Positions 2,223-20,369 are shown, numbered from the stretch's first letter. The stretch: 64,000 nt of DNA from Dehalococcoidia bacterium (GCA_965205165.1 OZ242037.1:1706576-1770575), one strand, 5' to 3'. Numbers and translations: made by a program. Notes: generated by a model not told the origin, from the letters alone.

Positions 2223-2223
2223 C

Positions 2224-2709
2224 ATGTGTGCCATCGTTGATGCCAGTGGCGCGAACGATGTGTTCGGTAAGAACCGCCCAGAGATCGGGAGTACGTTTTT
2301 TGATTGGATCAACGATCATGGTCGCATTCTGACTGGCGGAAAACTAACAATGGAGATCGGTGATCTGTGCCCACGCTTTCTCGAGTGGGCGAAAGAAGCT
2401 GAAAGGACAGGTAAATTAAAAAGAATGAGTCACTCGAAAATTCACAGAGAGATAACCGAAGTCATCAAGCGTAAGCATGGTGGTTCTCCTTTGAACGATG
2501 CCCATATACTCGCCATTGCCCGCCTAGGCGGAGCGCGACTGTTGTATGCAAACGATAAAGACTTGTTGGAAAACTTTGTCGATTCGCACCTTGTCTCGCG
2601 TCCACAAGGTGACACATTGACGAGCCTCACTGGGGGCCGCGTCACCGATGAAGATCGAGAAATATTGGAGCGAGCAACAGAGAGATGTCGCCGGCAGAAG
2701 TCCGGGTAA
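2224..2709 (+). CDS. Small partner protein of the AAA ATPase with a PIN-like acidic-residue pattern (possible nuclease)
   Basis: An ATG lies 1 nt after the ATPase stop, suggesting translational coupling. The 'MCAIVDASGAND...NDAHILAIARLGG...LLYANDKDL' segment has a PIN/TOPRIM-like arrangement of conserved Asp residues. The gene is low in GC. The family assignment is tentative. Confidence 0.45.
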   Translation: MCAIVDASGANDVFGKNRPEIGSTFFDWINDHGRILTGGKLTMEIGDLCPRFLEWAKEAERTGKLKRMSHSKIHREITEVIKRKHGGSPLNDAHILAIARLGGARLLYANDKDLLENFVDSHLVSRPQGDTLTSLTGGRVTDEDREILERATERCRRQKSG

Positions 2710-2727
2710 GACTAAAATAGCACCTCC

Positions 2728-4083
2728 CTACCCTGCCACCGTCTCATACGCCCCCGCCACTTGGCACACCGTCGCCTCGTCCCAGTGCCGCCCGCCGATC
2801 ATCAGCCCGATCGGCAAACCCTTCTCGTCAAACCCGCATGGCACCGAAATCGCTGGAATCCCCGTCACGTCAAACGGCGCCGTCAGCCTCGCCAGCTCCG
2901 CAGTCGGATCCCCGTCTTCGATCAGCGGCGCAGTCCGCGAACAAGTCGGCGACACCAGAACATCGACTTGCTCCAGCACACCCCGCGTCTCCTCGATGAA
3001 CTTCCGCCGCAATCGCTGGTCGTTGATGTAATCGACCGCGCTCACCGTGAGCCCCGCCTCGATCCGTGGCAGGATGTCGCCGTATTCGTCCCGCCGCTCG
3101 CGCAGCCACTTCTCGTGGTAGGCCGCCGCCTCCGCGATGATCGTCAGGCCGCGCCCGCTCCCCGTCTGCAGCGGCAACTCGACCTCTTCCACCACCGCGC
3201 CCAGCCCGCGCAGCACATCGACCGCCTCCGTGCATGCCGTCGCGACTTCGTCGTCCACTCCGTCCCACAGCATCTTCGTCGCCAGCCCGATCTTGAGCCC
3301 GGAGATCTCCTCGCCCAACTTCGCCGCCGCGTCGTCCACCGGCCGCTCCGCGCTGCCGGGGTCCGCCGGGTCGTGCCCCGCGATCGCGTTCAGCACCAGC
3401 GCCGCGTCCTCCACCGTCTTCGCCAGCGGCCCCACGTGGTCCAGCGTCCACGAGAGCGGCAGCACGCCCGCCCGCGAGACGCGACCGTACGTCCCCATCA
3501 GCCCGACCACGCCGCACAGCGACGCCGGTATCCGGATGCTCCCGCCCGTGTCCGACCCCAGCGCCGCCAGCGACGAACCGACCGCGACCGACGCCCCGCT
3601 GCCGCCGCTGCTCCCGCCCGGCGAGCGCTCTTCATCCCACGGATTCCGCACCGCCCCGAAATGCGGATTCCGGCTCGTCGTCCCGAACGCGAACTCGTGC
3701 AGGTTCAGCTTCCCCGGCATCACCGCGCCCGCCTCCTGCAGCTTGCGGTACACAGTCGCGTCCGCCTCCGGCACCCGCTCCCGCAGGAAGCCCGATCCTC
3801 CCGTCGTCGCAATCCCCGCCGTGTCCACCAAGTCCTTCAGCGCCACCGGAATCCCGTGCAGCGGCCCCAGGTCGCGCCCGTCCCGCAGCGCCGCGTCCGC
3901 CTCCGCCGCCTGTTCCCGCGCCAAGTCCCCCGTCACCGTGATGTACGCGTTCAGCCGCGGCTCCGTCTCCGCGATCCGCCCCAGCACCGACTCCGTCAGC
4001 CCCGCCACCGTCAACGATCCGTCCCGCAGCGCCGCCCCCGCCTCGACGATCGTCAACTCATGCGGCTGCCGCTCCCCGGCCAT
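2728..4083 (-). CDS. Amidase (amidase-signature family, GatA-like)
   Basis: A full-length 451-aa ORF carries the amidase-signature region 'GGSSGGSGASVAVGSSLAALGSDTGGSIRIPAS' with the Ser-cisSer-Lys catalytic residues in context. Confidence 0.9.
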   Translation of the reverse strand: MAGERQPHELTIVEAGAALRDGSLTVAGLTESVLGRIAETEPRLNAYITVTGDLAREQAAEADAALRDGRDLGPLHGIPVALKDLVDTAGIATTGGSGFLRERVPEADATVYRKLQEAGAVMPGKLNLHEFAFGTTSRNPHFGAVRNPWDEERSPGGSSGGSGASVAVGSSLAALGSDTGGSIRIPASLCGVVGLMGTYGRVSRAGVLPLSWTLDHVGPLAKTVEDAALVLNAIAGHDPADPGSAERPVDDAAAKLGEEISGLKIGLATKMLWDGVDDEVATACTEAVDVLRGLGAVVEEVELPLQTGSGRGLTIIAEAAAYHEKWLRERRDEYGDILPRIEAGLTVSAVDYINDQRLRRKFIEETRGVLEQVDVLVSPTCSRTAPLIEDGDPTAELARLTAPFDVTGIPAISVPCGFDEKGLPIGLMIGGRHWDEATVCQVAGAYETVAG

Positions 4084-4086
4084 CGC

Positions 4087-4284
4087 TCACGCCCCTCCGT
4101 CGAAGCGCAGCCCGAACGCCGGCTCCGTCTCGCCCAGATCGACCCGCTCCCGATCGCGCGAACGCGCCCGGATCACCCGCTCCACCAGCGGCGCCATCTC
4201 CGCCAGCCGCTCCTCCGAAGGCGCCTCGCCCAGCGCCTCCGCCAGCGCCCGCAGAGCCGTCTTCGCCGCTTCCGTCTCCGCCAT
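4087..4284 (-). CDS. GatC-like small protein (Asp/Glu-tRNA amidotransferase subunit C-like), coupled to the amidase
   Basis: The 65-aa product 'MAETEAAKTALRALAEALGEAPSEERLAEMAPLVERVIRARSRDRERVDLGETEP' resembles GatC. Its stop lies 3 nt before the amidase start codon. Confidence 0.5.
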   Translation of the reverse strand: MAETEAAKTALRALAEALGEAPSEERLAEMAPLVERVIRARSRDRERVDLGETEPAFGLRFDGGA

Positions 4285-4383
4285 CGCGCCGCCTCCGAAT
4301 CGCCCGCGAGTATAGGCCGCTCCATCCACCTCCGCGCCTGCCTCTATCCTGCCGCCAACGCGCACCGAACGCAGGAGGCAGCC

Positions 4384-5172
4384 ATGGCCGATGAAGTCCT
4401 GTTCGACATCCACGAGCGGGTGGCCACCATCACGCTCAACCGCCCGGACAAGATGAACACCATCAACGCCGCACTCGGCTCGCAGCTGATCGAATCGCTC
4501 CTCGAAGTCCGCAACAACGACGCGATCCGCGCCGCCGTCATCACCGGCGCGGGCGACCGCGCCTTCTGCGCCGGCGCCGACCTCACCCAAGGCGACGGCC
4601 CCGCCGCCAGCGCCGGACCGGCCGGCCACTTCCAGACCGACGCGCGCCCCCGCTTCGACGAGTTCGACGCCAAGAAGCCGCTGATCGCCGCCATCAACGG
4701 CCACGCCCTCGGCGGCGGCTTCGAAATCGCCCTCGTCTGCGACCTCCGCATCGGCGCTGAAAACGAGCGCGCGCGCCTCGGCCTGCCCGAAATCACGCTC
4801 GGCTTCTTCCCACTCGCCGGCGGCCCCATGCGCCTCCCCCGCGCCATCCCGCAGGCCTACGCCAACGAAATGCTCTTCCTCGGCCGCCGCCTCGACATGC
4901 AGACCGCCCTCCAATGGGGCCTGATCAGCCGCCTCGTCCCCCAGGACCAGCTGCTCCCCACCGCCCAGGAGATGGCCGGCCAGATCGCCGGCTACGCCCC
5001 CATCGCCGTCCGCGCCCTCAAGGAACTCATCTACGCGCAGACCGACATGACCCTCGACCAAGCCAACCGCTTCGGCGCGAGCCTCCGCTGGATCGTCGGC
5101 CAAACCGCCGACTCCAAAGAAGGCCCCCGCGCCTTCGCCGAACGCCGCACCCCCGAATTCAAAGGCGAGTAG
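4384..5172 (+). CDS. Enoyl-CoA hydratase/isomerase (crotonase fold)
   Basis: The 262-aa product contains 'ITLNRPDKMNTIN...AFCAGADL...INGHALGGGFEIALVCDLRIG', which are crotonase motifs. Confidence 0.9.
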   Translation: MADEVLFDIHERVATITLNRPDKMNTINAALGSQLIESLLEVRNNDAIRAAVITGAGDRAFCAGADLTQGDGPAASAGPAGHFQTDARPRFDEFDAKKPLIAAINGHALGGGFEIALVCDLRIGAENERARLGLPEITLGFFPLAGGPMRLPRAIPQAYANEMLFLGRRLDMQTALQWGLISRLVPQDQLLPTAQEMAGQIAGYAPIAVRALKELIYAQTDMTLDQANRFGASLRWIVGQTADSKEGPRAFAERRTPEFKGE

Positions 5173-5210
5173 CGGGCCGGCGACCAATCTCGCGGGAGAA
5201 AGGCAGACCA

Positions 5211-6323
5211 GTGGAACTTCACGATCAGCTCGTGGCACTCGCCCAGCGGCTTCCCAGCCTCCAAGGCAGTCTGCAGACCGAGGAGGCCACCAAGCACGCA
5301 CTGGTGCTGCCGTTCATCGCGGCGCTCGGCTACAACGTGTTCGACCCCGCCCAAGTCATCCCGGAGTACGTCGCCGATGTCGCTGGCCTGAAGGGCGAGA
5401 AGGTCGATTACGTGCTCATGCACGACGGCGTGCCAGCGGTGCTGATCGAGTGCAAACAGGCGAATGTTGAGCTGCTTGACCGCCACCTTGCTCAGATCTC
5501 GCGGTACTTCACTCGAACGCCAGCCAAGATCGGCGTCCTCACGAACGGCATCGTGTACCGGTTCTTCACGGACCTTACCGAGCCGAATGTGATGGACGAT
5601 GAGCCGTTCCTCGCCTTGGACCTCCGCCAACTAGATACGGACGCGGTCAAGGAGCTTCACCGAATCACGCACGATCGCCTCGATCTGGACGGGATGGTCG
5701 AGGCCGCACGCGAGCTCTCGTATCTCAACGGCATGCAAGCAGTGCTTGCACGGCAGTTGACGGAGCCCGACGAAGATCTGGTTCGGTGGCTGGCCGGGCA
5801 GGTGTACAACGGCAGGCTCACAGAGTCGGTCCGTGCCGAGTTCGCCGAGAGAACGAAGAATGCCTTCCGCTCTCTGATCAACGATCGCGTGAATGAGCTC
5901 GTAAAGCGCGCCGCTGAATTCCAGAAGGCCGACTCGGCCGCCGACGCTGATCTAGAGGAAGAGATCGGCGGAGCCGACGAGGACGATCTGGACCCGGACG
6001 ACGAAGGCGACGGCATCGTCACGACTGTGGAGGAGATGGAGGCCCTCGACCTGATTCGGGCGATCTTGGCAGACACAATCAGCGCCGATCGCGTGGTGAT
6101 GCGCGACAACAAGGCCTACTGCGCCATCCTCCTCGACGACAACAACCGCAAGCCGCTGGTCCGATTGCGGTTCGGCAAGCGCAAGAAGGTCATCGGGCTG
6201 TTCGACGCCGAGAAGAACGAGACCAAGTACCCCATCAGGTCGCTCAACGAGCTGTACCGATACCATGATGAGCTGTGCGAGACCGTCGCGCGCTACGACG
6301 AGAATCGAGCAGACGATGACTGA
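5211..6323 (+). CDS. Stand-alone type I restriction enzyme HsdR N-terminal-like (PD-(D/E)xK nuclease fold) protein
   Basis: The segment 'LVLPFIAALGYNVFDP...EKVDYVLMHDGVPAVLIECKQANVEL' fits the D...E-x-K core of the HsdR_N family. It is followed by an acidic Asp/Glu-rich tail. A GTG start follows the RBS 'GGGAGAAAGG'. GC is lower than in the neighbouring genes. Confidence 0.6.
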   Translation: MELHDQLVALAQRLPSLQGSLQTEEATKHALVLPFIAALGYNVFDPAQVIPEYVADVAGLKGEKVDYVLMHDGVPAVLIECKQANVELLDRHLAQISRYFTRTPAKIGVLTNGIVYRFFTDLTEPNVMDDEPFLALDLRQLDTDAVKELHRITHDRLDLDGMVEAARELSYLNGMQAVLARQLTEPDEDLVRWLAGQVYNGRLTESVRAEFAERTKNAFRSLINDRVNELVKRAAEFQKADSAADADLEEEIGGADEDDLDPDDEGDGIVTTVEEMEALDLIRAILADTISADRVVMRDNKAYCAILLDDNNRKPLVRLRFGKRKKVIGLFDAEKNETKYPIRSLNELYRYHDELCETVARYDENRADDD

Positions 6324-7506
6324 CCGCCTCCCCCTCGAAGACCTGTTCGTCCTCGACCTCACCCGCGCACGCGCCGGGCCCACCGCCACGCGCCAGCTCG
6401 GCGACTGGGGCGCAGACGTGCTCAAAATCGAGCAGCCCGCCGCCAAGGGCGCGGCCGACGGCATCACCGGCGACCGCGAATCCAGCGACTTCCTCAACCT
6501 CCACCGCAACAAGCGCTCGCTCGGCCTCAACCTCAAGGAGCCCGAAGCCCGCGACATCTTCATGCGCCTCGCCGAACGCGCCGATGTCGTCGTCGAAAAC
6601 TACCGGCCCGACGTCAAGCGCCGCCTCGGCATCGACTACGAAGCCGTCAGCGCCGTCAACCCCCGCATCATCTACGGCTCGATCTCCGGCTTCGGCCAAG
6701 ACGGGCCCTACGAGCGACGGCCCGGCGTCGACCAGATCGCGCAGGGCCTCGGCGGCCTCATGTCCGTCACCGGACTGCCCGGCGGCGGACCCGTCCGCGT
6801 CGGCATACCGATCGCCGACCTCTGCGCCGGTAACTTCCTCGCCCAGGCCATACTGATCGCGCTGATCGACCGCGGGCGCACCGGCAAGGGCCAGTGGGTG
6901 CACACATCCCTGCTCGAAGCGCAGATCGCGATGATGGATCTGCAAGCAACACGCTGGCTGATCGATGCTGAAGTGCCCGGCCAAGCCGGCAACGACCATC
7001 CCACCCTGATGCCGACCGGCGTCTACGAAACCAGCGACGGCCACATCAACATCGCCGCCGCCGGCGGCCTGCTCTACGAGCGCATGTGCCAAGCCATCGG
7101 CTCGCCCGAACTGATTGACCACCCGGACTACGCCACCACCGTCCAGCGCAGCGACAACCGAGACGCGCTCAACGCGGCGATCAATTCAAAAACCCGCGCC
7201 AAGACCAGCGCCGAATGGATCGACATACTCAACGAAGCCGGCGTCCCCTGCGGCCCGATCTACGACGTCGAGCAGACCTTCGCCGACGAACAGGTGCGGC
7301 ACCTCGGCCAAGCCCGCCCCGCGCCCCACCACGAGCGCGGCGAAGTGACCATCGTCGGCCAGCCGATCAACCTCACCGCAACCCCGCAACCCGCAAGCAT
7401 GCGGCTGCCATGCCCCCAACTCGGCGAGCATACCGACGATGTGCTCGCCGGGCTCGGATACGACCAAGCGCAGATCGCCGACCTCCATGAGCGCGGCATC
7501 GTCTGA
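6316..7506 (+). CDS. CoA-transferase family III (CaiB/BaiF)
   Basis: The N-terminus 'LEDLFVLDLTRARAGPTATRQLGDWGADVLKIEQP' and the family-wide length and motifs match. The start overlaps the upstream stop. Confidence 0.9.
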   Translation: MTDRLPLEDLFVLDLTRARAGPTATRQLGDWGADVLKIEQPAAKGAADGITGDRESSDFLNLHRNKRSLGLNLKEPEARDIFMRLAERADVVVENYRPDVKRRLGIDYEAVSAVNPRIIYGSISGFGQDGPYERRPGVDQIAQGLGGLMSVTGLPGGGPVRVGIPIADLCAGNFLAQAILIALIDRGRTGKGQWVHTSLLEAQIAMMDLQATRWLIDAEVPGQAGNDHPTLMPTGVYETSDGHINIAAAGGLLYERMCQAIGSPELIDHPDYATTVQRSDNRDALNAAINSKTRAKTSAEWIDILNEAGVPCGPIYDVEQTFADEQVRHLGQARPAPHHERGEVTIVGQPINLTATPQPASMRLPCPQLGEHTDDVLAGLGYDQAQIADLHERGIV

Positions 7507-7524
7507 CCGGAACAGGAGCACCCG

Positions 7525-8325
7525 ATGAAAAACGAAATCACCCTCGACACCGACAAGATGCAGGCCTGGTCCGAAGACGGCATCGGCTGGATGGTGTTCA
7601 ACAACCCCGCCCGCCACAACGCGCTCAGCCTCGAAATGCAGCGCGTCGTGCCGACCATCCTCGGCGCATTCCGCGACGACGACAGCGTCCGCGTCGTGGT
7701 CATGCGCGGCGCAGGCGACAAGGCGTTCATCAGCGGCGCCGACATCTCCGAGTTCGAATCGCGCCGCAGCGACCCCGAAACCATCGCCAAGTTCGACAAA
7801 ATCTCCGCCGACGCCAGCCATGCCTACACCGACCTCGACAAGCCGATCATCGGCATGATCCGCGGCTGGTGCATGGGCGGCGGACTGCTCACCGCACTCC
7901 GCGCCGACCTCCGCATCGCCTCCGACGACTCCCGCTTCGGCATCCCCGCCGCCCGCCTCGGCCTCGGCTACGGCTACGGCGGCGTCAAGTCCCTGATCGA
8001 CCTGATCGGCCGACCCGCCACCGAGGAAATCCTGATCACCGCCAAGCGCTTCAACGCCGAAGACGCCCAGCGCTGGGGCCTCGTCAACCGCGTCGTCCCC
8101 GCCCAGGACCTCGAAGCCGAAGTCAAGGACCTCGCCGCCACCATCGCCGACAACGCCCCCCTCACCCTCAAGGCCCTCCGCTACGCCATCGCCCAATACC
8201 ACAAGCCCGAACCCGACCTCGAAGGCGCGGAACGCCTGGCCGCCGCCTGCTTCGCCAGCGAGGACTACAAAGAAGGCCGCCAAGCCTTCATGCAAAAGCG
8301 CCCCCCCAACTGGCAAGGCCGCTAG
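7525..8325 (+). CDS. Enoyl-CoA hydratase/isomerase family protein
   Basis: The 266-aa product carries the crotonase motifs 'AFISGADISEF...GWCMGGGLLTALRADLRIA'. Confidence 0.9.
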   Translation: MKNEITLDTDKMQAWSEDGIGWMVFNNPARHNALSLEMQRVVPTILGAFRDDDSVRVVVMRGAGDKAFISGADISEFESRRSDPETIAKFDKISADASHAYTDLDKPIIGMIRGWCMGGGLLTALRADLRIASDDSRFGIPAARLGLGYGYGGVKSLIDLIGRPATEEILITAKRFNAEDAQRWGLVNRVVPAQDLEAEVKDLAATIADNAPLTLKALRYAIAQYHKPEPDLEGAERLAAACFASEDYKEGRQAFMQKRPPNWQGR

Positions 8326-8370
8326 ACGCTCTGGTACAAGTGTGCTAGTGTGACGCCCAGAGGAGGCAAG

Positions 8371-9234
8371 ATGGCCGTAAAGAGCACCTATCGGGCACTG
8401 AGCTTGGGAGCGGGCGTGCAGAGCACCGTGCTCGCCCTCCTGCTCTCACGGGGTGACAGCCGGCTCCGAAAGCGCGGCTATCCGACACCGGACGTCGCGA
8501 TTTTCGCCGACACCGGCTGGGAACCGCAGTACGTCTACCGCCATTTGGACTGGCTGACCGAGGAGCTCGCGTTCCCTGTCGAGATTGTGAGGGCGGGTGA
8601 CCTGCGCGAGAACCTGCCGCGCGCCCGGACGCCGCAGGGCTACCGGTTCGTGGATGTGCCCCTCTTCACGGTCAACCCCGACGGCAAGAAGGGGATGCTC
8701 CGCCGCCAGTGCACGAACCACTACAAGGTCGCGCCGATCACCAAGGCGGTCCGTGAATGGGCGGGCGGCGTTCGAGGCCGCCCGTTCCCCCCCGATACGC
8801 GGGTTGAGATGTGGCTCGGCATCTCGACCGACGAGGTGCTCCGCATGAAGCCCAGCCGCGAGCACTGGATCGACCATCGCTGGCCGCTGATCGACCTGGA
8901 CATGTCCCGCCAAGATTGTCTAGACTGGTTCCATGCCCACTACCCGGACCGCCACCTCCCCCGCTCCGCCTGCGTCATCTGCCCCTTCCGGTCCGACGCG
9001 CATTGGGCCGAGCTCCGGGACGAGGAGCCCGAGAGCTACGCGGAAGCCGTGGCGTTCGACCGCTCGCTGCGCCAAGGCAGGAGTCGTCACGCGGTGCGCC
9101 GAGTCATCGATGGACGCCCGTATCTCCACGCTTCCCGGCGCCCGCTGGACACGGCGACCGTGGAAGGCTCGCAGGGCCCTGCCATCGACCTTGACGAGTT
9201 CGTCTCAGAGTGCGAAGGCATGTGCGGTGTCTGA
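8371..9234 (+). CDS. PAPS-reductase-like PP-loop ATP pyrophosphatase (DndC/SspD/phage PAPS-reductase-like; predicted nucleic-acid modification enzyme)
   Basis: A 'SLGAGVQST' PP-loop (SGGxDS-type) lies near the N-terminus and a C-terminal Cys cluster 'SACVICPFRSD' is present. An ATG at 8371 follows 'GAGGAGG'. The ORF could instead begin at the GTG at 8350. Confidence 0.8.
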   Translation: MAVKSTYRALSLGAGVQSTVLALLLSRGDSRLRKRGYPTPDVAIFADTGWEPQYVYRHLDWLTEELAFPVEIVRAGDLRENLPRARTPQGYRFVDVPLFTVNPDGKKGMLRRQCTNHYKVAPITKAVREWAGGVRGRPFPPDTRVEMWLGISTDEVLRMKPSREHWIDHRWPLIDLDMSRQDCLDWFHAHYPDRHLPRSACVICPFRSDAHWAELRDEEPESYAEAVAFDRSLRQGRSRHAVRRVIDGRPYLHASRRPLDTATVEGSQGPAIDLDEFVSECEGMCGV

Positions 9235-10486
9235 CAGGACCACATTCGTGGAGACAGCCCTCCCTCTTCACGATTATCAACGACAGGTTCTGCATGACCT
9301 GCTGGTCGCAGTCTTGCCATCCCGGACATCAGGGAGGGGCGGACGCGCCGTTGCCCACATGCCGACCGGAGCAGGGAAAACTCGAATGGCTTGCCATGCC
9401 GCTGCGACGATCCTGAATCAGTGGCCAGCTGAGGGAAAGGTCGTTGTCTGGCTCGCATCATCTGAAGAGCTCTGCGAACAGGCGGCCGATTCGCTGCTGG
9501 AAGCGTGGCGAAGCATCGGTAATCGCGGTATTGCCCTCCATCGGTTCTGGGGTTCCGATGTCGCGCCACTGGAAGATATCTCCGAAGGGTTTCTCGTTGC
9601 CGGGCTTCCCAAATTGAGGGCTGCCGCTAGCCGTAAGCAAGGTCTACTTGCTCCCCTCGCCCAGAACGTTGCTGGTATATTCTTTGATGAAGCGCATCAA
9701 GCGATCGCTCCTACCTATTCGTTGATAACGGAGCAACTTGCGACATACAGTCCGCCACTGATCGGTCTTACGGCTACGCCCGGTCGCACCTATGAAGTCA
9801 AGGAAGAAGACGAGCGTCTAGCCGATATGTTTCATCATAGGAAAGTCGCAATCAATCCACGTGGTCACGAGAACGCGCTCACGTATCTTATTCGGAATCA
9901 GTATCTTGCGGAACCAGATTTTCACATCATGCAAGTTGATTCATCGATCGATCTTGATGAACCATCAGTAGATGCCGAGTACCGCACCGATGGTCTCCGT
10001 TCACTGGGGCGAGACGAGGCTTGGAGAGCGGCGGTTGCATCGGTCACACGTGACGCACTATCACGGCACCGGCGGGTGATTGCATTCTGTCCCTCTGTGT
10101 CTTGCGCGATCAACGTTGCCGAGACACTCAAATCGGAGTCGCTAAATGCTGATGCTATTACTGGCGAAACGCCAACTGAGGACCGCATAGATACTATAGA
10201 TCGTTTCCGCAGCGACTCTCGGATTCCGATGGCGCTGATAAATTTTGGAGTACTCACAACTGGCTTTGACGCCCCACAGACAAGCTGCGTCATCGTTGCT
10301 CGCCCGACTAATTCTTTAGTACTATATTCGCAGATGGTAGGACGCGCAATGCGTGGTCCTCGCTCAGGAGGAAATAGAGACTGCACAATCTATTCACTGA
10401 TCGGTCCAAGCCACGTCGCTTTCGATTCGGTCATCCACGAGTTCGAGCATTGGGAAGAACTATGGCAGACCGAGCAGAACAACTGA
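9227..10486 (+). CDS. Superfamily-2 DEAD/DEAH-box helicase (type III restriction Res-like minimal helicase)
   Basis: Motif I is 'AHMPTGAGKT', motif II 'FFDEAHQ', motif III 'LTATPGR' and motif VI 'QMVGRAMRG'. The start overlaps the upstream stop. The start codon is uncertain and may be the GTG at 9227. Confidence 0.8.
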   Translation: MSDRTTFVETALPLHDYQRQVLHDLLVAVLPSRTSGRGGRAVAHMPTGAGKTRMACHAAATILNQWPAEGKVVVWLASSEELCEQAADSLLEAWRSIGNRGIALHRFWGSDVAPLEDISEGFLVAGLPKLRAAASRKQGLLAPLAQNVAGIFFDEAHQAIAPTYSLITEQLATYSPPLIGLTATPGRTYEVKEEDERLADMFHHRKVAINPRGHENALTYLIRNQYLAEPDFHIMQVDSSIDLDEPSVDAEYRTDGLRSLGRDEAWRAAVASVTRDALSRHRRVIAFCPSVSCAINVAETLKSESLNADAITGETPTEDRIDTIDRFRSDSRIPMALINFGVLTTGFDAPQTSCVIVARPTNSLVLYSQMVGRAMRGPRSGGNRDCTIYSLIGPSHVAFDSVIHEFEHWEELWQTEQNN

Positions 10487-12288
10487 AACTTAATGAGCCA
10501 CTGTTTGACCCACAAGTGGCGATGCGTGCGATGCGCGACAGTAGATACCGGAGAGAATCTAACGCGATCGCTGAACTCATTGACAACTCTGTTGATGCGC
10601 GTGCGCGGCGTGTTGAGCTGCTGCTATTCGAAGAGCAGCGACAAGGCAACGTGAATGATGTATGGCGAGTGGGCCAACTCGCAGTGGTTGACGATGGCCT
10701 CGGCATGGATCCGCGCACGCTCCAGCAGGCGCTCCGGTTCGGTGGAAGATCAGACGACGGACGGATCCACCGCATTGGAAAATACGGCGTCGGGTTGCCG
10801 ACAGCATCGGCGTCACAATGCCTTCGCGTTGATATTTGGACATGGCAAGAGCCGACAGAACAGCCGTGGCATTGTTTTTTGGATATTGGTGCTATTGAGC
10901 GAGGTGAAGTCAGTTCCATAGCGCCTGCAGAGCGTCACCCCTTGGATGAGAGAGTGCGCCGATTCGTGACAAGCCAAGGCTTGCGGAGTAATAGTGGCAC
11001 GGTGGTGCTGTGGAGTGACATAGATCGCATCAAGGCGCGACCAGAAACCATCTTTGGACGCCTTGAGCGTGAAATTGGCCGAATCCACCGACACCGGATT
11101 AGCGATGGCCGACTGACGATACACGCCCGTGCGATTAGAGACGGAGTTGTTCGACCAGAGACCGACAGATCACTTCGCCCAAACGATCCATTGTTTTTGA
11201 TGGAGGATACTGCCACAGCGCCACCTTGGGATCACGAGCCGATGTTTAAGCCATATGGTGAATCTATGCGCTACACTGTAGATGTCGATGGCCGAATGGA
11301 GCATGTAGAAGTTCGATACTCAATGGTGAAACGAGAAGCAATCGGTAATGATCCGACACAGCCTGGACGGCGGCCACATGGTAAAGATGCCATGGAGAAT
11401 GCGGGCGTCTCCATTGTTCGAGAGGAGCGAGAGCTGTTACTTGATCGCTCGTTCGTCGGCGCGGGGGCACGACGCGATGAACCTCAGCATCGATGGTGGG
11501 GTTGCGAGGTCAGGTTCGATTCAGGATGTGACGATCTGTTCGGAGTTGATCACAATAAGCAGATGGCATCAGCGTTTTCCGATTTGGCGGAAGAGATGGC
11601 AAGGAGTGATGATGCAGATTATGTGTTGAGGGAACAACTCAAGGAAGATCATCAACTCTATGAGATCGTTGAAGATATCAGAAGCACTATTCGTGCAATG
11701 CGTGGAGAAATCAATCAAATGTTTGGGCAGAGGCGTGCAGCTTTGCAAAGATCTAAGACTATATCGCCAGAGAAAGAGGCAGAACGTCGGGCCTCGCTCG
11801 CCGTAGCCGATCAACTAGAATCAGGAGCCACACTTACACAGACTGACAGAATGCGAGAACAGACGAGTCCAGAAGTGCGCATAGCACGGTTCGCAAGTTT
11901 CCTGCAGGATCGTGGAGTTGCTGACCCCGAGGATAGTGCTCGTGAGCATGTGGAAGAGAATATTTGGTTTCGGTTCCGATCCGCCGAACTGAGCGGATCT
12001 CAGATATTCATGGTTGAGCGAAGTGAAGGTATCTTGGTCGTAGTCCTCAATGTGCATCACCCGATTCATAAGTTCATCCAATTTCTCGAGCAACGAGAAG
12101 ATAATCAAATGGCCCACCAGTCAGCCGTGGCTATTCTAACACTGATTTTGGCATGGGCCCGCATGGAAGATCATATCGAACGAACCGACGATCGCCGTGA
12201 ATTGCAAAACATCGCTATAGAGTGGGGCAAGCAAGTGGAAAGAATATTGGCGCAACTGGTGACAGAGCTCAGTGCAGGAGACTTATAG
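10450..12288 (+). CDS. GHKL-superfamily ATPase (MORC/MutL-like, HATPase_c)
   Basis: The N-box 'AIAELIDNSVDA' and the G1 box 'VVDDGLGMD' match the Bergerat ATPase fold. The gene overlaps the helicase 3' end. Confidence 0.75.
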   Translation: MGRTMADRAEQLKLNEPLFDPQVAMRAMRDSRYRRESNAIAELIDNSVDARARRVELLLFEEQRQGNVNDVWRVGQLAVVDDGLGMDPRTLQQALRFGGRSDDGRIHRIGKYGVGLPTASASQCLRVDIWTWQEPTEQPWHCFLDIGAIERGEVSSIAPAERHPLDERVRRFVTSQGLRSNSGTVVLWSDIDRIKARPETIFGRLEREIGRIHRHRISDGRLTIHARAIRDGVVRPETDRSLRPNDPLFLMEDTATAPPWDHEPMFKPYGESMRYTVDVDGRMEHVEVRYSMVKREAIGNDPTQPGRRPHGKDAMENAGVSIVREERELLLDRSFVGAGARRDEPQHRWWGCEVRFDSGCDDLFGVDHNKQMASAFSDLAEEMARSDDADYVLREQLKEDHQLYEIVEDIRSTIRAMRGEINQMFGQRRAALQRSKTISPEKEAERRASLAVADQLESGATLTQTDRMREQTSPEVRIARFASFLQDRGVADPEDSAREHVEENIWFRFRSAELSGSQIFMVERSEGILVVVLNVHHPIHKFIQFLEQREDNQMAHQSAVAILTLILAWARMEDHIERTDDRRELQNIAIEWGKQVERILAQLVTELSAGDL

Positions 12289-13113
12289 ATGCGTGCTGTT
12301 GATATTCTGAGTGAACATGCAGCATCTGCCGACGCGGCAGTAATTGTGGCACCGTATATAAAAGAAGACGCACTGAAACCTCTCCTTGAAAAATTACCTC
12401 CTGCCGCGACATTGCTTTGTGTCTCTAGATGGACCGTGGAAGATGTACGTCGTGGCGTATCTGATATTACCTGTTTCAGGCAAGTGATAGACCATGGCGG
12501 TACGTTCCGGCTACATCAGCGCCTACATGCAAAATATTTCCGATTCAGTGATGCTGTATTTATTGGCTCGGCAAATGTAACGCAGAATGGATTAGGCATA
12601 TCGCTTTCACCAAACATCGAGATTCTCCATTCACCGAGTCAGTCTTTTGATGCGCAAAGGTTCGAAGATGAGATAATTGCCGAATCGATTGCAATAAATG
12701 AGAATGAAGCCAAGCTTTGGCAAAAGATACAACAGACGAATCAGCTGGATAATGAGTTATTGCAAGAAGCAATGGCGATGGATACTTGGCTGCCAACGAC
12801 AAGAGAACCATATCATGTGTGGCTGGCATACAGTAGACGAAGTGGTGAAATCATATCGGCAGATGAACGAAGACTCGCGGAACGAGAGTTGGAAAGACTA
12901 AGATTCCCTGAAAACTTAGAAGAAGCTGATTTTAATTCATGGCTCGCAGCTCGTCTATTGAGCTCAGCACGAGTATATGATGTCAGGCTTTCGTTGCAGT
13001 TGGAGGATGCAGTTGGTTGGGATCTCTTGGTCGCGAGATGGGGGGTGAGCCGGAGTGTGGCGGCCCGGACCCAGACGACGGTTGCGAACTGGTTGCGGGA
13101 GATGGTGGGGTGA
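12289..13113 (+). CDS. Phospholipase-D-family (HKD) nuclease, single HKD motif (Nuc/BfiI-like)
   Basis: The motif 'HAKYFRFSDAVFIGSANVTQNGL' is H-x-K-x4-D-x6-GSxN. The ATG starts immediately after the upstream stop. Confidence 0.75.
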   Translation: MRAVDILSEHAASADAAVIVAPYIKEDALKPLLEKLPPAATLLCVSRWTVEDVRRGVSDITCFRQVIDHGGTFRLHQRLHAKYFRFSDAVFIGSANVTQNGLGISLSPNIEILHSPSQSFDAQRFEDEIIAESIAINENEAKLWQKIQQTNQLDNELLQEAMAMDTWLPTTREPYHVWLAYSRRSGEIISADERRLAERELERLRFPENLEEADFNSWLAARLLSSARVYDVRLSLQLEDAVGWDLLVARWGVSRSVAARTQTTVANWLREMVG

Positions 13114-13174
13114 ACCGTTAGTCATTGATGGAGATTCTGCCGCCGGAGTTCGACCGCTGGAAGACCTGATCGGG

Positions 13175-13192
13175 AGGCGCTATCCTGCGGGT
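13175..13192 (+). promoter_or_regulatory. Recurrent promoter-like motif GCGCTATCCTGCGG (approximate coordinates) ~25-30 nt upstream of the LLM oxidoreductase start
   Basis: The same 12-14-mer containing a TANNNT-type -10 hexamer (TATCCT) recurs upstream of at least four other genes in the window. It is followed by GAGGAGG and an ATG. Confidence 0.45.
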
Positions 13193-13213
13193 CTGCGCTG
13201 AGGAGGTGTCGCC

Positions 13214-14347
13214 ATGCCTGTCGAGTTCATCGGGATGATCGGGGTCAAGCCGTCGGAGCGGGATGCGGCGACGAGCATCATCGGAGGCGGCGTCGACCGC
13301 GACTACCTCTGCGAGTTCACCCGCGCCCACGAGGAGTCGGACTTCGACCAGGTGCTGGTCGGCTACACCTCGGCCGCGGCCGACGGGCTGCACGTGGCGC
13401 AGGCCGCCGCCGCCTGCTCGGAGCGGATCAAGTTCCTGATCGCCCACCGGCCCGGCTTCGTCGCGCCGACCCTCGCCGCCCGCAAGTTCGCCACGCTCGA
13501 CTACTTCACCGGCGGCCGCATCTCCGTCCACATCATCTCCGGCGGCAGCGACCCCGAACAGCGCCGCGACGGCGACTACCGCGACCACGACGCCCGCTAC
13601 CGCCGCACCGGCGAGTACCTCGACGTGATGCGGCGCGTGCTGCGCGGCGAGACCCCGTTCGACTTCCACGGCGAGTTCTACGACTTCGAGGCGTCCAACT
13701 CCGACGTCGCGCCCGTGCAGCCCGGCGGCATCCCGATCTTCTTCGGCGGCGCCTCCGAGATCGCCTTCCGGATCGGCGTCAAGCACTGCGACGTCTACAT
13801 GATGTGGGGCGAGCCGCGCGCCTCGATCGCGGCCACCATCGCCGACGTGCGCGCGCTGGCCGCGGAATACGGGCGCGAGCCCCGCTTCAGCGTCTCCTTC
13901 CGCCCGATCATCGCGCCCACCGAGGCCGCGGCCTGGGAGAAGGCCGAGCGCTACCTGAAGACGGTCAAGGACCTGCGCGCCGGCCCGCTCGGCTCCCGCT
14001 CGGAGTCCCGCGGCTCGCAGCGCCTGCTCGAATTCGCCGCCCAGGGCGAGCTGCACGACGAGCGCCTCTGGATGCCGATCGCCGCCGCCACCGGCGCGAC
14101 CGGCAACACCACCGCGCTGGTCGGCACCCCCGAGCAGGTCGCCGACTCGCTGCTCAAGTACATCGACCTGGGCGTCTCGACGATCCTCATCCGCGGCTTC
14201 AACCCGCTGCCCGACGCCCGCGACTACGGCGAGGAGCTGATCCCGCTCGTGCGCGCCGAAGTGGCCAAGCGCGACGCCGAAGCGGCGCGGCAATCGTCCG
14301 CCGCCGCCGAGCGGGAAGCGGCCGAAGCGGTCGCGGTGGCTGACTGA
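13214..14347 (+). CDS. LLM-class flavin/F420-dependent oxidoreductase (luciferase-like monooxygenase)
   Basis: The 377-aa product shows a TIM-barrel LLM signature in 'RISVHIISGGSDPEQRRDGDY...GVSTILIRGF'. Confidence 0.85.
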   Translation: MPVEFIGMIGVKPSERDAATSIIGGGVDRDYLCEFTRAHEESDFDQVLVGYTSAAADGLHVAQAAAACSERIKFLIAHRPGFVAPTLAARKFATLDYFTGGRISVHIISGGSDPEQRRDGDYRDHDARYRRTGEYLDVMRRVLRGETPFDFHGEFYDFEASNSDVAPVQPGGIPIFFGGASEIAFRIGVKHCDVYMMWGEPRASIAATIADVRALAAEYGREPRFSVSFRPIIAPTEAAAWEKAERYLKTVKDLRAGPLGSRSESRGSQRLLEFAAQGELHDERLWMPIAAATGATGNTTALVGTPEQVADSLLKYIDLGVSTILIRGFNPLPDARDYGEELIPLVRAEVAKRDAEAARQSSAAAEREAAEAVAVAD

Positions 14348-15540: not shown

Positions 15541-15551
15541 CGGAGCCGGCC

Positions 15552-17207
15552 ATGGCCGATTTCAACGCGGTCAACCGCGGTGTTTATGTGGCCGACAATC
15601 TGGAATTCCTGCGGCGCTTGAATGACGAGTGCATCGACTTGGCCTGCATCGATCCGCCGTTCTCGAAGGGCGACACGTTCGAGGGCGATCAGCTCAAACC
15701 CGATCTGTCCGACCACGAGCGCGAAGTAGAGCTGCGCCTGCTCCGAGGTTGGGGAATCCACGACGAGAACGACGCAAGCGACGCCGGCATCGCCTGGCCC
15801 GCGACGACGGCCGCCGGCTTCAAGGATGTCTGGTCGTGGGAACAGGATATCCATGAGGATTGGATCAAGGACTTGGCCGAGAACCACGCGCCGACGAGCG
15901 ATTTGATCGAGACGACGCGACTCATCCACGACGATCACATCGCGGCGTACCTCTGCTACATGGCGGTTCGACTAATCGAGATCCACCGCGTGCTCAAGCC
16001 CACCGGCAGCCTGTTCCTGCACTGCGACCACACGGCCAATGGCTACCTGCGCCAGCTGCTCGACAGCGTGTTCGGCAAAGACCAAATGCAGAATGAGATC
16101 ATCTGGTGCTATGCCCCCGCCGGCCGCCCGCCGAAGCGCGGCTTCCACCGCAAGCACGACACGATTTTCTACTACCGCAAGGCGAATGCGGGCTCGTTCA
16201 ATCATCAATACGGCCCGATGTCGCCGGAGACCTTGGCGACCTACTCGGAAACGGATGAAGAGGGCAGGCAATATAAGATCGCGCAGGGCGGGCGCCGAAC
16301 CTATCTCGATCAACAGCGCGGACGGCCGATCCCGTCGTGGTGGGATGACATTCCGTCATTCGGAACTGCAACGAATGCGCCGGAGCGCACGGGCTACCGC
16401 ACCCAGAAGCCGATCGCCCTCGCCGAACGCATCATCAGCGCCAGCACGAACGAGGGCGATGTCGTGCTTGACTGCTTCGCCGGCTGCGCATCCTCCGCGA
16501 TTGCCGCGGAGCGCTTGGACCGCAGATGGGTAGCCTGCGACCTGAACCCAAGAGCATGGACGGTGTTCAAGCGGCAATTCAGCAAGCCGAAGCTGGCGCT
16601 GTTGAGGTGCAGCGACGAAGTCTCCGGCCAAGCAGTATGGGGCGACGAGCCAGTCGTGACGGTGCACGGTCCCGGAAATCTGCCCGCTCGCACCTCGCAA
16701 GCCCAAGAGCAGCAGCCCGAGAAACGCGAACCGCACGAGCGTAAATTCAAGGTCCCCTCAAGCATCATCCCCGAAGAAGAGATGAAGGAAAAACTGCTGG
16801 AGTTCTCCGGCTACAAAGCGTGGTGCTGCGGTTTCGCCAACCGCCTGCCGGACGGCACGATCATCAAGACCACGCGCAACTTCCACTTGGATCACATCCT
16901 CCCCCGCTCGGAAGGCGGCTCCCATCAGATCATGAATCGTGCGCCAATGTGCCCATCACACAATCTCCGCAAGAGCACCCGTTCCGTGAATCTCGTTGAA
17001 TACCAGCGCGAGATCGCAGCCGCAGGCGAGCTCTGCGTCGAATCAATTGAGGAGCTCGTTGACCTACCGGAAGCCTATGAGTACGCACTAAAACTCTATG
17101 GCCAAGCCTATCAAGCTGATCAAAGAGTTAAGATTATGAAAACGAGCGTCTCAGTCTACCAGCAAACCACACTCAATCCCAATCGCCTAAGTGAGGTTAA
17201 CCGATGA
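15552..17207 (+). CDS. DNA methyltransferase (beta-class N6-adenine/N4-cytosine) fused to a C-terminal HNH endonuclease domain
   Basis: 'IDLACIDPPFSKGD' is motif IV (DPPY-type) near the N-terminus, and 'VVLDCFAGCASSAIAA' is the later AdoMet motif I. The C-terminal 'FHLDHILPRSEGGSHQIMNRAPMCPSHN' is an HNH motif. Confidence 0.8.
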   Translation: MADFNAVNRGVYVADNLEFLRRLNDECIDLACIDPPFSKGDTFEGDQLKPDLSDHEREVELRLLRGWGIHDENDASDAGIAWPATTAAGFKDVWSWEQDIHEDWIKDLAENHAPTSDLIETTRLIHDDHIAAYLCYMAVRLIEIHRVLKPTGSLFLHCDHTANGYLRQLLDSVFGKDQMQNEIIWCYAPAGRPPKRGFHRKHDTIFYYRKANAGSFNHQYGPMSPETLATYSETDEEGRQYKIAQGGRRTYLDQQRGRPIPSWWDDIPSFGTATNAPERTGYRTQKPIALAERIISASTNEGDVVLDCFAGCASSAIAAERLDRRWVACDLNPRAWTVFKRQFSKPKLALLRCSDEVSGQAVWGDEPVVTVHGPGNLPARTSQAQEQQPEKREPHERKFKVPSSIIPEEEMKEKLLEFSGYKAWCCGFANRLPDGTIIKTTRNFHLDHILPRSEGGSHQIMNRAPMCPSHNLRKSTRSVNLVEYQREIAAAGELCVESIEELVDLPEAYEYALKLYGQAYQADQRVKIMKTSVSVYQQTTLNPNRLSEVNR

Positions 17208-18517
17208 CTGAATCATCGTACTATGGGCTGTTTTGGCCAACATCCCAATCACGCCACCGCCACGCTGTGCCAGGACAGCTCAAAGTCGCGCCAACGGGTA
17301 AGCTGTCGCTTACCCTGTTCTCGCCCCATTATGATGCACGACCTCCGTGGTTTATCCCTCTTCCCGGCGATCCTGTTGAGCGATCTGTGTCGGGTGAGAT
17401 CTCGGGCCTTGGCGCTATCACCATCTTCCGTTGCGTGACCGGATCGCACACTCTATCATTCGGTCTAGATCAAATTATTGTCGCTGAGATGCTCTGTGGC
17501 GACGGTGCCGTTACACGTGTCGCCGCAAACTGCCATACCAGTCTTCGATTAAAGAACTTTACCCTTCCCGTTCCAGAGCTTTCATTATGGCGAGGAATCC
17601 CGTGGGTTCGTCCTGATGAGCACCGCCCTAGAAACGAATATGGATTTACTGTTACTCTTCCGGAATCGATCCGTGCGCAAGTGCAGCGCAATGAGCATCT
17701 GACGATAGATTATAGATATGAGCCGCAAGGAGGCGGAGCCAGCGACGATCGATTCAGCATCCGGTGCACACCAGCTGTAACATTAGCAGCAGCACATGGG
17801 CTCGATATTGATTGTGCACTCCAACGAATCCATGCGATAAAGGCATTCTTCATATTTCTACTAGATTCCCCGATCACTGAATCGCACCTTCTCTGCACCA
17901 TTGAGCAGCTAGCTCTTCGCCCTTCTGTGTGGATGCGAGATTTGCAGCACAATCGATGCGAATTGCTATTGACGCCCTTTCAATATAATTATCGCGAACG
18001 CAAACGCAATCTCCATGATGTTCTGCTGTTCGAGTCGGAGATAGTCTCAAATTTCAGCCAGATGCTCGAGCAATGGCTTCAGGTTTATACGACCGCACCT
18101 GAAGCCATTGTTCAATTCTTGGATGCCGTTCACAGTGAAGATTATAGACTTAATATTAAGTTTCTATTGCTCACCCAAGCGTTTGATGCCCTGCATCGAA
18201 CTAAAACGAAAGAGCAAGACAAGGCTTTCCGCGTTCGTCTTAATGATTGCCTAGCATCCTATCCAAGTTTGTTCGGTGATCAGGCTGCGCGACTTGATCT
18301 CATCGATCAAATTGTTCACACCCGCAATCGATATACACATGGCAGCGAGCGTCGGCCTGAATTTGAAGCTGGCGACGCAGAATTGTTCCCTCTTGCCCGA
18401 AAGATGGAAGCGATCATCATGGTATATTTACTGGATTGGCTTCTTCCAGATAACCATCAGTGGCCAACGCTGATCAAACAACGTCGGCCGTTCAAGGCAC
18501 GCATTAATCCAACATAG
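17204..18517 (+). CDS. Hypothetical protein with a C-terminal HEPN-like R-x4-H motif (Abi/ApeA-like candidate)
   Basis: Its ATG overlaps the MTase stop as ATGA. The gene is low in GC. The C-terminal 'LIDQIVHTRNRYTHG' fits HEPN R-x4-6-H. No other family was recognised. Confidence 0.5.
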   Translation: MTESSYYGLFWPTSQSRHRHAVPGQLKVAPTGKLSLTLFSPHYDARPPWFIPLPGDPVERSVSGEISGLGAITIFRCVTGSHTLSFGLDQIIVAEMLCGDGAVTRVAANCHTSLRLKNFTLPVPELSLWRGIPWVRPDEHRPRNEYGFTVTLPESIRAQVQRNEHLTIDYRYEPQGGGASDDRFSIRCTPAVTLAAAHGLDIDCALQRIHAIKAFFIFLLDSPITESHLLCTIEQLALRPSVWMRDLQHNRCELLLTPFQYNYRERKRNLHDVLLFESEIVSNFSQMLEQWLQVYTTAPEAIVQFLDAVHSEDYRLNIKFLLLTQAFDALHRTKTKEQDKAFRVRLNDCLASYPSLFGDQAARLDLIDQIVHTRNRYTHGSERRPEFEAGDAELFPLARKMEAIIMVYLLDWLLPDNHQWPTLIKQRRPFKARINPT

Positions 18518-18636
18518 TCAATCTGTTTTAATGTGATGGGGCGTGATGAAACACTAATGATATAGATGGAACAGAGAATTCGCCGCTGCGACATGAGACG
18601 CGCTGAAATTGTCTATCTGGCTATTGGATGCAACCG

Positions 18637-19122
18637 CTATCGCGTGGCCCAAGTAACCTGCCTCTCATCGCGTTGCACCTGATCCAGTGTCTGGTAATAG
18701 AAATGATGGAGGAACGGGAGCTGCGGCTCGCGGCCGTGTTGGAGGAACATCCAGAGCCAGAGGACGCGGCCGCTGCGGCCGTTGCCGTCCATGAAGGGAT
18801 GCAGGGTTTCGTAGCGGATGTGGGTCTGCCAGAGGTCGATCGGGTGGGTGTTGGCGTGATTGAGCAGGTCTGCAAGGTCGGTGCGGATTTTGGGGCCGCC
18901 TTGCGGCGGCGTGTGGTTGCCGACGAAGACGTTCATGCCGGGGTGTTCGCGGAGCTCGGCGTTGGCGCAGGTCCAGACGAACTGCTGCATGTCGCCGACG
19001 GTGATGTCGCGTTGGTCGAGGAACAGCTCGTGGGCCTCGATCTCCGCCTCGGTGACGCGGAAGATGCCCTCGATCCGGTTCGATTCTTCGACGAAGTCAT
19101 GCAGGTTGAATTCGCTGGGCAT
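18637..19122 (-). CDS. Fic/DOC-family protein
   Basis: It carries the canonical Fic motif 'HPFMDGNGRSGR' (HPFx[DE]GNGR). Confidence 0.85.
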   Translation of the reverse strand: MPSEFNLHDFVEESNRIEGIFRVTEAEIEAHELFLDQRDITVGDMQQFVWTCANAELREHPGMNVFVGNHTPPQGGPKIRTDLADLLNHANTHPIDLWQTHIRYETLHPFMDGNGRSGRVLWLWMFLQHGREPQLPFLHHFYYQTLDQVQRDERQVTWATR

Positions 19123-19132
19123 GTCGATTCTC

Positions 19133-20356: not shown

Positions 20357-20369
20357 GGCAGCGGATGAT

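Follow-up and report, generated by a model that had tools for sequence, protein, structure and literature searches.

What is the function of a bacterial operon in which a protein resembling 3'-phosphoadenosine-5'-phosphosulfate (PAPS) reductase precedes a helicase, a GHKL ATPase and a nuclease? Such a set of four genes, referred to here as the cassette, is found at positions 8371-13113 of a 64,000-nucleotide stretch of DNA from a Dehalococcoidia bacterium (GCA_965205165.1 OZ242037.1:1706576-1770575; the window). Its open reading frames (ORFs) encode the PAPS-reductase-like protein (ORF1), an SF2 DEAH helicase (ORF2), a MORC/MutL-like GHKL ATPase (ORF3) and a phospholipase D (PLD)-family nuclease (ORF4); the last three are called the trio below. 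We lean towards reading the cassette as a self-contained modification-restriction defence unit of the phosphorothioate type, which would be akin to the Ssp family and dispense with SspA, SspB and SspC. The gene content, the conserved linkage of the genes, the homologies of their products and the conservation of the catalytic motifs are described first, followed by a possible mode of action and its alternatives.

Conservation of the four-gene cassette

A scan for ORF1 over GTDB, with one genome per species, yielded 80 loci; the protein has thousands of relatives, which form 1,597 clusters at 50% identity (E<=1e-30). Wherever ORF1 is 58-70% identical to that of the window (20/20 GTDB loci), homologues of ORF2, ORF3 and ORF4 are located directly downstream in the same order, with ORF2 reduced to a 120-aa remnant, the only part kept, in locus L011 and the contig of L017 ending before ORF4. 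These 20 closest loci span at least six phyla, the hosts belonging to Gemmatimonadota, several Chloroflexota classes, Latescibacterota, Rhodothermaceae and Alphaproteobacteria, and the loci found in metagenomes agree in keeping the linkage. Complete chromosomes with the cassette include OZ244775.1, OY282446.1, OY282385.1, OZ251449.1 and OY282377.1. The distribution over the phyla is patchy, and transposases occur in the flanks. A gene-neighbourhood comparison over genomes had been proposed in a first-pass annotation, made from the sequence alone, as a check on its suggestion of a defence system; the four genes prove to be conserved in their linkage and co-inherited over phyla.

Conservation is uneven along the operon. 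Mean identity to the window falls from 62% for ORF1 to 51% for ORF2, 42% for ORF3 and 37% for ORF4, and in three loci (L011, L002 and L093) the trio has decayed with ORF1 intact. With ORF1 far better conserved than the trio, on which the decay falls, the cassette fits the pattern of a modification/restriction (M/R) pair.

ORF1, a remote relative of SspD

ORF1 (8371-9234, + strand) encodes a PAPS-reductase-like, distantly SspD-like protein of 287 aa with a degenerate PP-loop. Profile searches match it to the PADLOC model of SspD (5.7e-11) and to Pfam PAPS_reduct at 17.5 bits, below the cutoff of 22.5, and yield no match in NCBIfam. Its AlphaFold2 (AF2) model, with a predicted local distance difference test (pLDDT) score of 86 and a disordered or flexible C-terminal tail, has CysH as the top structural match in Foldseek, and adenosine-5'-phosphosulfate (APS) reductase, LarE, TtuA and NcsA are also among the best; the modelled fold matches that of Fe-S-dependent sulfur transferases and APS/PAPS reductases. 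A single-sequence search of the PDB gave chance matches only, such as NOTUM, and a profile search gave a marginal match to 'PptA' (21fy_C, E 0.057), which is unconfirmed and for which no paper was found.

The motifs of ORF1 are S11-LGAGVQS, F45-ADTGWE, RRQC114T..K119, SAC201xxC204P and, in the tail, EC281xGxC285G. In an alignment with short SspDs, to which identity is ~23%, FxDTGxE, RxC114T..K119, SxC201xxC204 and the C-terminal C281xxxC285 are invariant, and DE..R and W212 are also held in common; judging from this alignment, ORF1 is a distant homologue of short SspD. Where SspD has the PP-loop SGGKDS, ORF1 has GAGVQS, the Lys and Asp being gone, and the latter loop recurs in phage and plasmid relatives of ORF1. 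The stretch 'SLGAGVQST' had initially been taken for an SGGxDS-like loop, and a DNA modification made through an adenylated intermediate had been proposed for ORF1 as a PP-loop ATP pyrophosphatase. The alignment shows that the loop is not intact, and the degenerate motif lends this route no support; it is doubtful that ORF1 adenylates anything. GAGVQS presumably resembles the degenerate loop of E. coli CysH, and the disordered tail resembles the catalytic ECGLH tail of PAPS reductase. DndC has been reported to carry a [4Fe-4S] cluster on three cysteines, and the cysteine pattern of ORF1 appears to fit a site of this kind. Because of the Cys motifs in common with SspD, the DndC-like cysteine pattern, the CysH-like loop and the disordered Cys tail, ORF1 therefore appears to be built as a cysteine/Fe-S sulfur-transfer enzyme.

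The trio and its Ssp-type neighbours

ORF2 (9227-10486, + strand; 419 aa) is a compact helicase with a GTG start, Pfam matches to ResIII, DEAD and Helicase_C, and the motifs PTGAGKT, FDEAHQ, LTATPGRT and QMVGRAMRG; helicase motifs I, II (DEAH), III and VI are conserved to at least 90% in the family. ORF3 (10462-12288, + strand; 608 aa) matches HATPase_c_3 (7e-19), and its AF2 model (pLDDT 82) matches the ATPase modules of MORC2, SMCHD1, MORC3 and MutL; the GHKL domain and transducer (~aa 30-360) are followed by a helical C-terminal domain (~aa 363-604). ORF4 (12289-13113, + strand; 274 aa) has no Pfam match of its own; its homologues match PLDc_2, and in PADLOC it matches DrmC (2.6e-9) and ZacB (1e-7). 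It is a single-HKD nuclease (LHAKYFRFSDAVFIGSANVT) with a family-specific C-terminal half, and the complete HxK(x4)D(x6)GSxN motif is conserved in its family. Every catalytic motif of the trio, whether helicase, GHKL or HKD, is conserved to at least 90%. The domain calls of the first-pass annotation for all four genes are correct according to the profile searches, the AF2 models of ORF1 and ORF3, and the HKD motif of ORF4.

Metagenomes were scanned with the GHKL alignment, and the resulting loci were then searched with hidden Markov models (HMMs) of the families. A much wider set of trios emerged, with GHKL identities of 25-34% and a helicase of ~565 aa, in which the family HMMs score 1e-70 to 1e-97 for helicase and GHKL ATPase and 1e-11 to 1e-21 for the PLD nuclease. 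In all remote loci for which 4 kb or more of flank is available (36/36), genes of the SspA/B/C/D type adjoin the trio, and all of the Ssp-linked trio loci contain cysteine desulfurase and SspC-type genes. SspC (PADLOC 1.6e-98) and SspA lie immediately upstream of the trio in L105; L116 has a short SspD (2e-113) and L102 a DUF4007 protein (SspB); in L121, the order is SspB-SspC-SspD-helicase-GHKL, SspD sitting where ORF1 sits in the cassette. Among cultured organisms, Trichormus variabilis ATCC 29413 has such an Ssp-linked cluster on its plasmid A, with AVA_RS27545, AVA_RS27540 and AVA_RS27535 as the trio. Because ORF1 is homologous to SspD and the homologues of the trio reside beside SspA/B/C/D-type genes, the cassette can be regarded as a stripped-down relative of phosphorothioate systems. 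Approximately 84% of sspBCD clusters have no known restriction partner (PMC8092258), and the trio, which is widespread in gut, marine and cyanobacterial sequences, is an unnamed candidate for part of this gap.

A different arrangement is seen on the Agrobacterium tumefaciens plasmid pAtCFBP7129b (L174, 5705-17964). Here, downstream of the helicase-GHKL pair come a gene for a 359-aa protein without a match to the PLD HMM and then a DndFGH/SspFGH-like set of three genes, the last of which encodes a very large protein with an FtsK/SpoIIIE domain; the stretch examined contains no Ssp modification genes.

ORF1-like genes outside the cassette

At 42-51% identity, relatives of ORF1 mostly lack the trio and occur in three other settings. 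The first comprises 29 PDC-M33-like loci, mainly in Dehalococcoidia metagenome-assembled genomes, in which an ORF1-like domain of clade B forms the C-terminal half of a ~540-aa protein with DUF6339 (PDC-M33C) as its N-terminal half. The gene order is PDC-M33A, itself a GHKL ATPase, PDC-M33B, the DUF6339-ORF1-like fusion and then DndB-like or GmrSD/SspE-like genes. In three hybrid loci (L036, L040 and L091), M33A, M33B and the fusion are followed by the trio, and in a fourth (L032), they are accompanied by a convergent trio. The clade-B partners (trio, DndB-like, GmrSD/SspE-like) seem to be interchangeable, which by analogy mirrors SspBCD with its alternative restriction partners; a module that contains ORF1 and exchanges its restriction partners fits an M/R pair as well.

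An example of the M33A-M33B-fusion arrangement is L033 (4397-10691), one of the loci L030-L075, and several genomes hold two copies, e.g. OZ242308.1 and OZ243964.1; such loci look like a modification module analogous to Ssp whose restriction partners can be exchanged. In L091, a gene for a ScoMcrA-type protein with sulfur-binding domain and HNH domain (8930-9820) is positioned directly downstream of a seven-gene version of the system.

The second setting is alphaproteobacterial conjugative and Ti plasmids (182 records), on which the gene directly follows ardC, as on pTi-SAKURA. The third is phages (84 records) with a solo 'PAPS reductase-like' gene, such as Pelagibacter phage HTVC034P gp12, Thermus phage P23-77 ORF3 and the copies in M. 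abscessus prophages; even in the 17-kb genome of P23-77, the family member occurs as a lone gene. These orphans are 38-51% identical to ORF1, have the same GAGVQS loop and an ECEGxCG tail, and are not accompanied by the trio. The solo copies presumably serve anti-restriction, and a phage PAPS reductase has been reported to promote evasion of host Dnd (PMC13551039). ORF1 orphans on mobile elements at anti-restriction positions, in a manner comparable to orphan methyltransferases, would be a further fit to the M/R pattern.

More speculatively, the ORF1 family as a whole (260-300 aa, PAPS-reductase fold, CysH-like degenerate loop, three-Cys Fe-S site and Cys tail) might be a stand-alone DNA-marking enzyme, either a partner-free writer of phosphorothioate, without SspB, SspC, DndD or DndE, or the author of a new sulfur-dependent modification; we advance this proposal tentatively. 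In cells, it would act as the 'M' subunit beside the helicase, MORC-like ATPase and PLD nuclease of a restriction machine, and in phages and conjugative plasmids, on its own, as a portable anti-restriction coat. If so, one SspD-like protein, its PP-loop degenerate, would mark DNA without the ATPase and the nickase that are now held to be essential, and either the minimal requirements for DNA phosphorothioation would change or a new modification would be revealed. It would also account for the 'PAPS reductase' genes long noted in phages, in archaeal viruses and in the leading regions of plasmids.

Possible mode of action and alternative readings

The four proteins could divide the work of a defence system between them. 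ORF1, as an Fe-S/cysteine-based enzyme of the sulfur-transferase kind, would mark the DNA of its own cell; the likeliest mark is phosphorothioate, with sulfur in the backbone, or a close relative of it that also depends on sulfur, and a housekeeping cysteine desulfurase would be the sulfur source. Because SspB (DNA targeting/nicking) and SspC (ATPase) are absent from the cassette, ORF1 would have to act either alone or with the co-encoded helicase and GHKL ATPase as its partners in handling DNA. ORF2-ORF4 would constitute an ATP-driven restriction complex, in which translocation along DNA would fall to the DEAH helicase, the MORC/MutL-like ATPase would form a dimer that serves on DNA as a clamp or switch, and a dimer of the single-HKD nuclease would cleave unmarked DNA. 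The chemistry of the mark, the way in which self is told from non-self and the assembly of a physical complex are inferred. The cassette also offers a tractable bacterial setting for the coupling of MORC-type GHKL ATPases to a helicase and a nuclease.

Several points weigh against a phosphorothioate-type unit. All that is said of the mark is deduced indirectly. Synthesis of phosphorothioate needs a P-loop ATPase (DndD/SspC) and a DNA-targeting protein besides the PAPS-reductase-domain protein (PMC12914056, PMC12707154), and neither partner is present in the window or, in the related loci, within 8 kb. The PP-loop of the ORF1 family, devoid of the Lys and Asp of SGGKDS, makes ATP-pyrophosphatase chemistry of the DndC/SspD kind doubtful. 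ScoMcrA-type nucleases cut phosphorothioated DNA, and the gene of this type beside the L091 system is awkward if the mark is ordinary phosphorothioate. Moreover, L090 has the trio together with M33A/B-like genes and no ORF1-like gene, and the plasmid locus L174 has helicase and GHKL genes with no Ssp genes nearby.

The alternative that survives best, unlikely as we consider it, is that ORF1 does not modify DNA at all. It would instead be a nucleotide- or sulfonucleotide-binding sensor, a regulator or an antitoxin-like subunit that, by means of its CysH-like degenerate loop and redox-active Cys tail, holds the helicase-MORC-PLD nuclease inactive until infection; the cassette would then encode an innate, modification-independent or abortive-infection nuclease. 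The loop is indeed degenerate, like that of CysH, a protein that binds PAPS and does not hydrolyse ATP, partners of the SspB/SspC type are missing, and the overlap of the ORF1 stop with the ORF2 start suggests a stoichiometric complex, yet the Cys residues that ORF1 has in common with bona fide SspD are invariant. The trio of L090 manages without an ORF1-like gene, but in the Ssp-linked relatives, the full modification set always accompanies the trio. The solo copies in phages and after ardC are better suited to a protective modifier than to a regulator of a nuclease that is absent.

Rather improbable, too, is that ORF1, working alone, modifies DNA or nucleotides in a way that does not yield phosphorothioate (e.g. 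by an adduct to base or backbone that contains sulfur or derives from PAPS), and that the trio reads the resulting mark. Such a chemistry would sit well with the low identity to SspD (~23%) and the different nucleotide-binding loop, with the lone gene in the 17-kb P23-77 genome, and with the ScoMcrA-type nuclease beside the L091 system, which is tolerable if the mark is not standard phosphorothioate. The only relatives tied to a function by experiment (SspD, DndC and BrxP), however, are phosphorothioate enzymes, and cysteine desulfurase and SspC-type genes are found in all Ssp-linked trio loci.

A housekeeping role, with ORF1 as an assimilatory PAPS/APS reductase and ORF2-ORF4 as a MutL-like repair set that adjoins it by chance, is suggested by CysH as the top Foldseek match, by the co-directional position of the cassette among metabolic genes, 45 nt from the upstream gene, and by the conserved site in a related genome, but is already largely refuted and highly improbable: ORF1 is not an ordinary CysH, the case that had been named at the outset as fatal to a defence function, since it has no NCBIfam CysH match, scores below the Pfam cutoff, is not adjacent to cys genes and has relatives on phages and plasmids, and the cassette itself is patchy over phyla, has transposases in its flanks, shows a GC mosaic within the operon and has relatives linked to Ssp, DndB and GmrSD genes.

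Comparison with named systems

The four proteins fall in four different systems of PADLOC-DB v2, none of them in common, and no single named system accounts for them in either NCBIfam or PADLOC-DB v2. The earlier failure to place the gene set in a named system therefore stands as far as PADLOC is concerned, whereas its separation from Ssp was too strong: ORF1 is a remote SspD homologue, and homologues of the trio are found beside Ssp-type genes in 36/36 informative loci.

Like Ssp, the cassette would join a modification module to a separate restriction module, and ORF1 is homologous to the sulfur-inserting PAPS-reductase-domain protein SspD, the Cys motifs being common to both. Unlike Ssp, it has no SspA, SspB (DUF4007) or SspC (DUF499/BrxC-like ATPase); tblastn with SspA/B/C from L102 and L105 gave no match at E<=1e-3 in the 64-kb window and none at E<=1e-6 in the four-gene loci. 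Further differences are the ~23% identity of ORF1 to SspD, its PP-loop, which is GAGVQS and not SGGKDS, and a restriction part that is not SspE (DUF262/DUF1524). The Ssp neighbourhoods suggested that ORF2-ORF4 might be SspFGH, an assignment that was rejected: SspF is a Walker-A protein, SspG a protein of no known function and SspH FtsK/SpoIIIE-like (PMC8092258). A 2025 review names only dndFGH/sspFGH, sspE and pbeABCD as restriction branches of phosphorothioate systems (PMC12707154). PbeABCD, in which HKD-SF2 helicase nucleases are linked to Dnd (PMC10853773), is similar in employing an SF2 helicase and an HKD nuclease as the phosphorothioate restriction arm, and ORF2 weakly matches PADLOC PbeA (5.6e-13); in the cassette, however, helicase and HKD nuclease are separate genes with the GHKL ATPase between them, and there is neither a CxC ABC ATPase nor DndE. 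The trio is not SspFGH, SspE or PbeABCD, and no name for it was found in the literature searched, nor was a published description of the four-gene set, the trio, DUF6339 or PDC-M33.

The combination of GHKL ATPase, SF2 helicase and HKD nuclease is described as a restriction-like theme in which the partner is a DNA methylase, with no mention of a PAPS-reductase or PP-loop partner (PMC2292703), in agreement with the attribution of this theme to Iyer, Abhiman and Aravind (2008) in the first-pass annotation. These paraMORC systems resemble the cassette in that a single predicted operon encodes a GHKL+S5 ATPase together with an SF2 helicase and a nuclease of the HKD type (PLD fold), and differ from it in that the methylase takes the place held here by PAPS-reductase-like ORF1; no DNA methyltransferase is present in the cassette or in the gene-annotated related loci.

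To the PDC-M33 loci, the cassette is related through the clade-B members of the ORF1 family, which extend DUF6339/M33C at its C-terminus in a gene that comes after M33A and M33B, and through the same trio after that set in L036, L040 and L091. HMMs built from 24-28 loci find M33A, M33B and M33C in L032, L036, L040 and L091 and none of them in the window; the M33C models of PADLOC cover the DUF6339 part only. The idea that PDC-M33A and PDC-M33B are diverged versions of ORF3 and ORF4 was rejected; M33A does have the N-terminal motifs of GHKL ATPases (hhalign E 1e-4), and M33B is unlike PLD. The orphan 'PAPS reductase-like' genes of phages and plasmids belong to the same family as ORF1 and differ in being solo on mobile elements.

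As regards Dnd, the four proteins have no PADLOC or NCBIfam match to DndC, DndD or DndE, the only related match being dnd_restrict_1 at 21.7 bits versus a cutoff of 600. They have no PADLOC match to PglZ, BrxC or BrxL of BREX type 4, and the neighbouring genes are metabolic. The defining components of DISARM (DrmA/DrmB), Mza (MzaA, C, D, E) and Azaca (ZacA/ZacC) are not among the four proteins, which give weak single-component matches only: DrmC (2.6e-9), ZacB (1e-7) and MzaB (64 bits versus a cutoff of 850).

Gene layout and history of the locus

The description of the four genes as co-directional and overlapping or abutting was borne out by ORF calling on the 64-kb window. ORF1, which ends at 9234, could start with GTG at 8350; ATG at 8371 is likelier, with a Shine-Dalgarno-like GAGGAGG box (8359-8365, + strand), read directly from the sequence, 5 nt 5' of it. 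The GTG start of ORF2 at 9227 and the stop of ORF1 share 8 nt (GTGTCTGA). For ORF3, TTG at 10450 is possible and ATG at 10462 likelier, which gives a 25-nt overlap with ORF2, and the ATG of ORF4 at 12289 abuts the TAG stop of ORF3. A public protein collection holds the exact products of the starts at 8371, 10462 and 12289, and the 8-nt and 25-nt overlaps are found again in the homologous loci L001 and L003. A scan of 7400-13400 for promoters and terminators gave nothing above chance. The cassette, separated from its upstream gene by 45 nt, is flanked by genes for a CoA-transferase, an enoyl-CoA hydratase and a luciferase-like oxidoreductase, with no cys genes adjacent.

In a related genome (L092 and L093), the cassette has the same neighbours, the CoA-transferase and enoyl-CoA hydratase genes on one side and the luciferase-like gene on the other. 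Amino-acid identity between the two genomes is 77% for the CoA-transferase, 69% for the enoyl-CoA hydratase and 74% for the luciferase-like gene; within the cassette, it is 78% for ORF1, 62% for ORF2, 54% for ORF3 and 45% for ORF4. Composition and comparison with L092 delimit a low-GC, unusually diverged stretch at 9500-13110, the 5' edge of which is inside ORF2: nucleotide identity to the syntenic L092 drops from ~0.7-0.85 to ~0.5-0.6 within it, and identity and GC both fall at ~9500 and recover at ~13200. GC content at third codon positions is 0.84 in ORF1, 0.52 in ORF2, 0.49 in ORF3 and 0.42 in ORF4, compared with 0.86-0.97 in the flanking genes, and L015, L018 and L020 have similar mosaics within the operon. 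Because of the synteny with L092/L093 and the drop in identity and GC at ~9500, the cassette is therefore considered old at its present chromosomal site, and only its nuclease part seems to have been replaced or to have diverged fast. The earlier argument that the AT-rich genes were acquired horizontally holds for composition, ~9500-13110 being low in GC and diverged, and is at odds with the host-like third codon positions of ORF1 and with the occupation of the same site in L092.

Neighbouring genes in the window

A stand-alone protein with an HSDR_N/HSDR_N_2 domain is encoded 2 kb upstream of the cassette (5226-6323, + strand), and a similar gene is situated just upstream in L003-L006. It was considered as a fifth component and rejected, since neither the other loci nor the syntenic L092 have it. 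Downstream, an N6_N4 DNA methyltransferase fused to a C-terminal HNH nuclease (15549-17207, + strand) was considered as the true modification partner and rejected, having no counterpart in the syntenic L092/L093. It overlaps by 4 nt with the gene for an ApeA-family protein (ApeA_NTD1 + HEPN_Apea; 17204-18517, + strand) in a low-GC stretch, and a small Fic/DOC-family protein with a HPFMDGNGRSGR motif is encoded at the edge of this low-GC region (18637-19122, - strand). Near the left end of the window, an AAA_15/AAA_21 (AbiEii/OLD-like) ATPase with a DUF3696 tail (843-2222, + strand) is found in a low-GC islet (GC ~0.49), and its gene overlaps that of a small PIN-domain protein (2140-2709, + strand); the pair is likely a separate two-gene defence or toxin module.

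The 64-kb window contains no DnaA box (TTATCCACA, <=1 mismatch), no tRNA and no Rfam match. Its GC skew, (G-C)/(G+C) on the + strand, is extreme and strand-linked, ranging from -0.15 to -0.30 over 1-8500 and from +0.3 to +0.5 over 22000-64000, with the change of sign at ~18500-22000. Genes on the + strand are correspondingly rich in C at third codon positions on the left (enoyl-CoA hydratase, G3 0.17, C3 0.73) and rich in G on the right (PstS-like ORF at 30000-30600, G3 0.69, C3 0.20), and the change looks like a skew switch of the origin type or like an inversion breakpoint.

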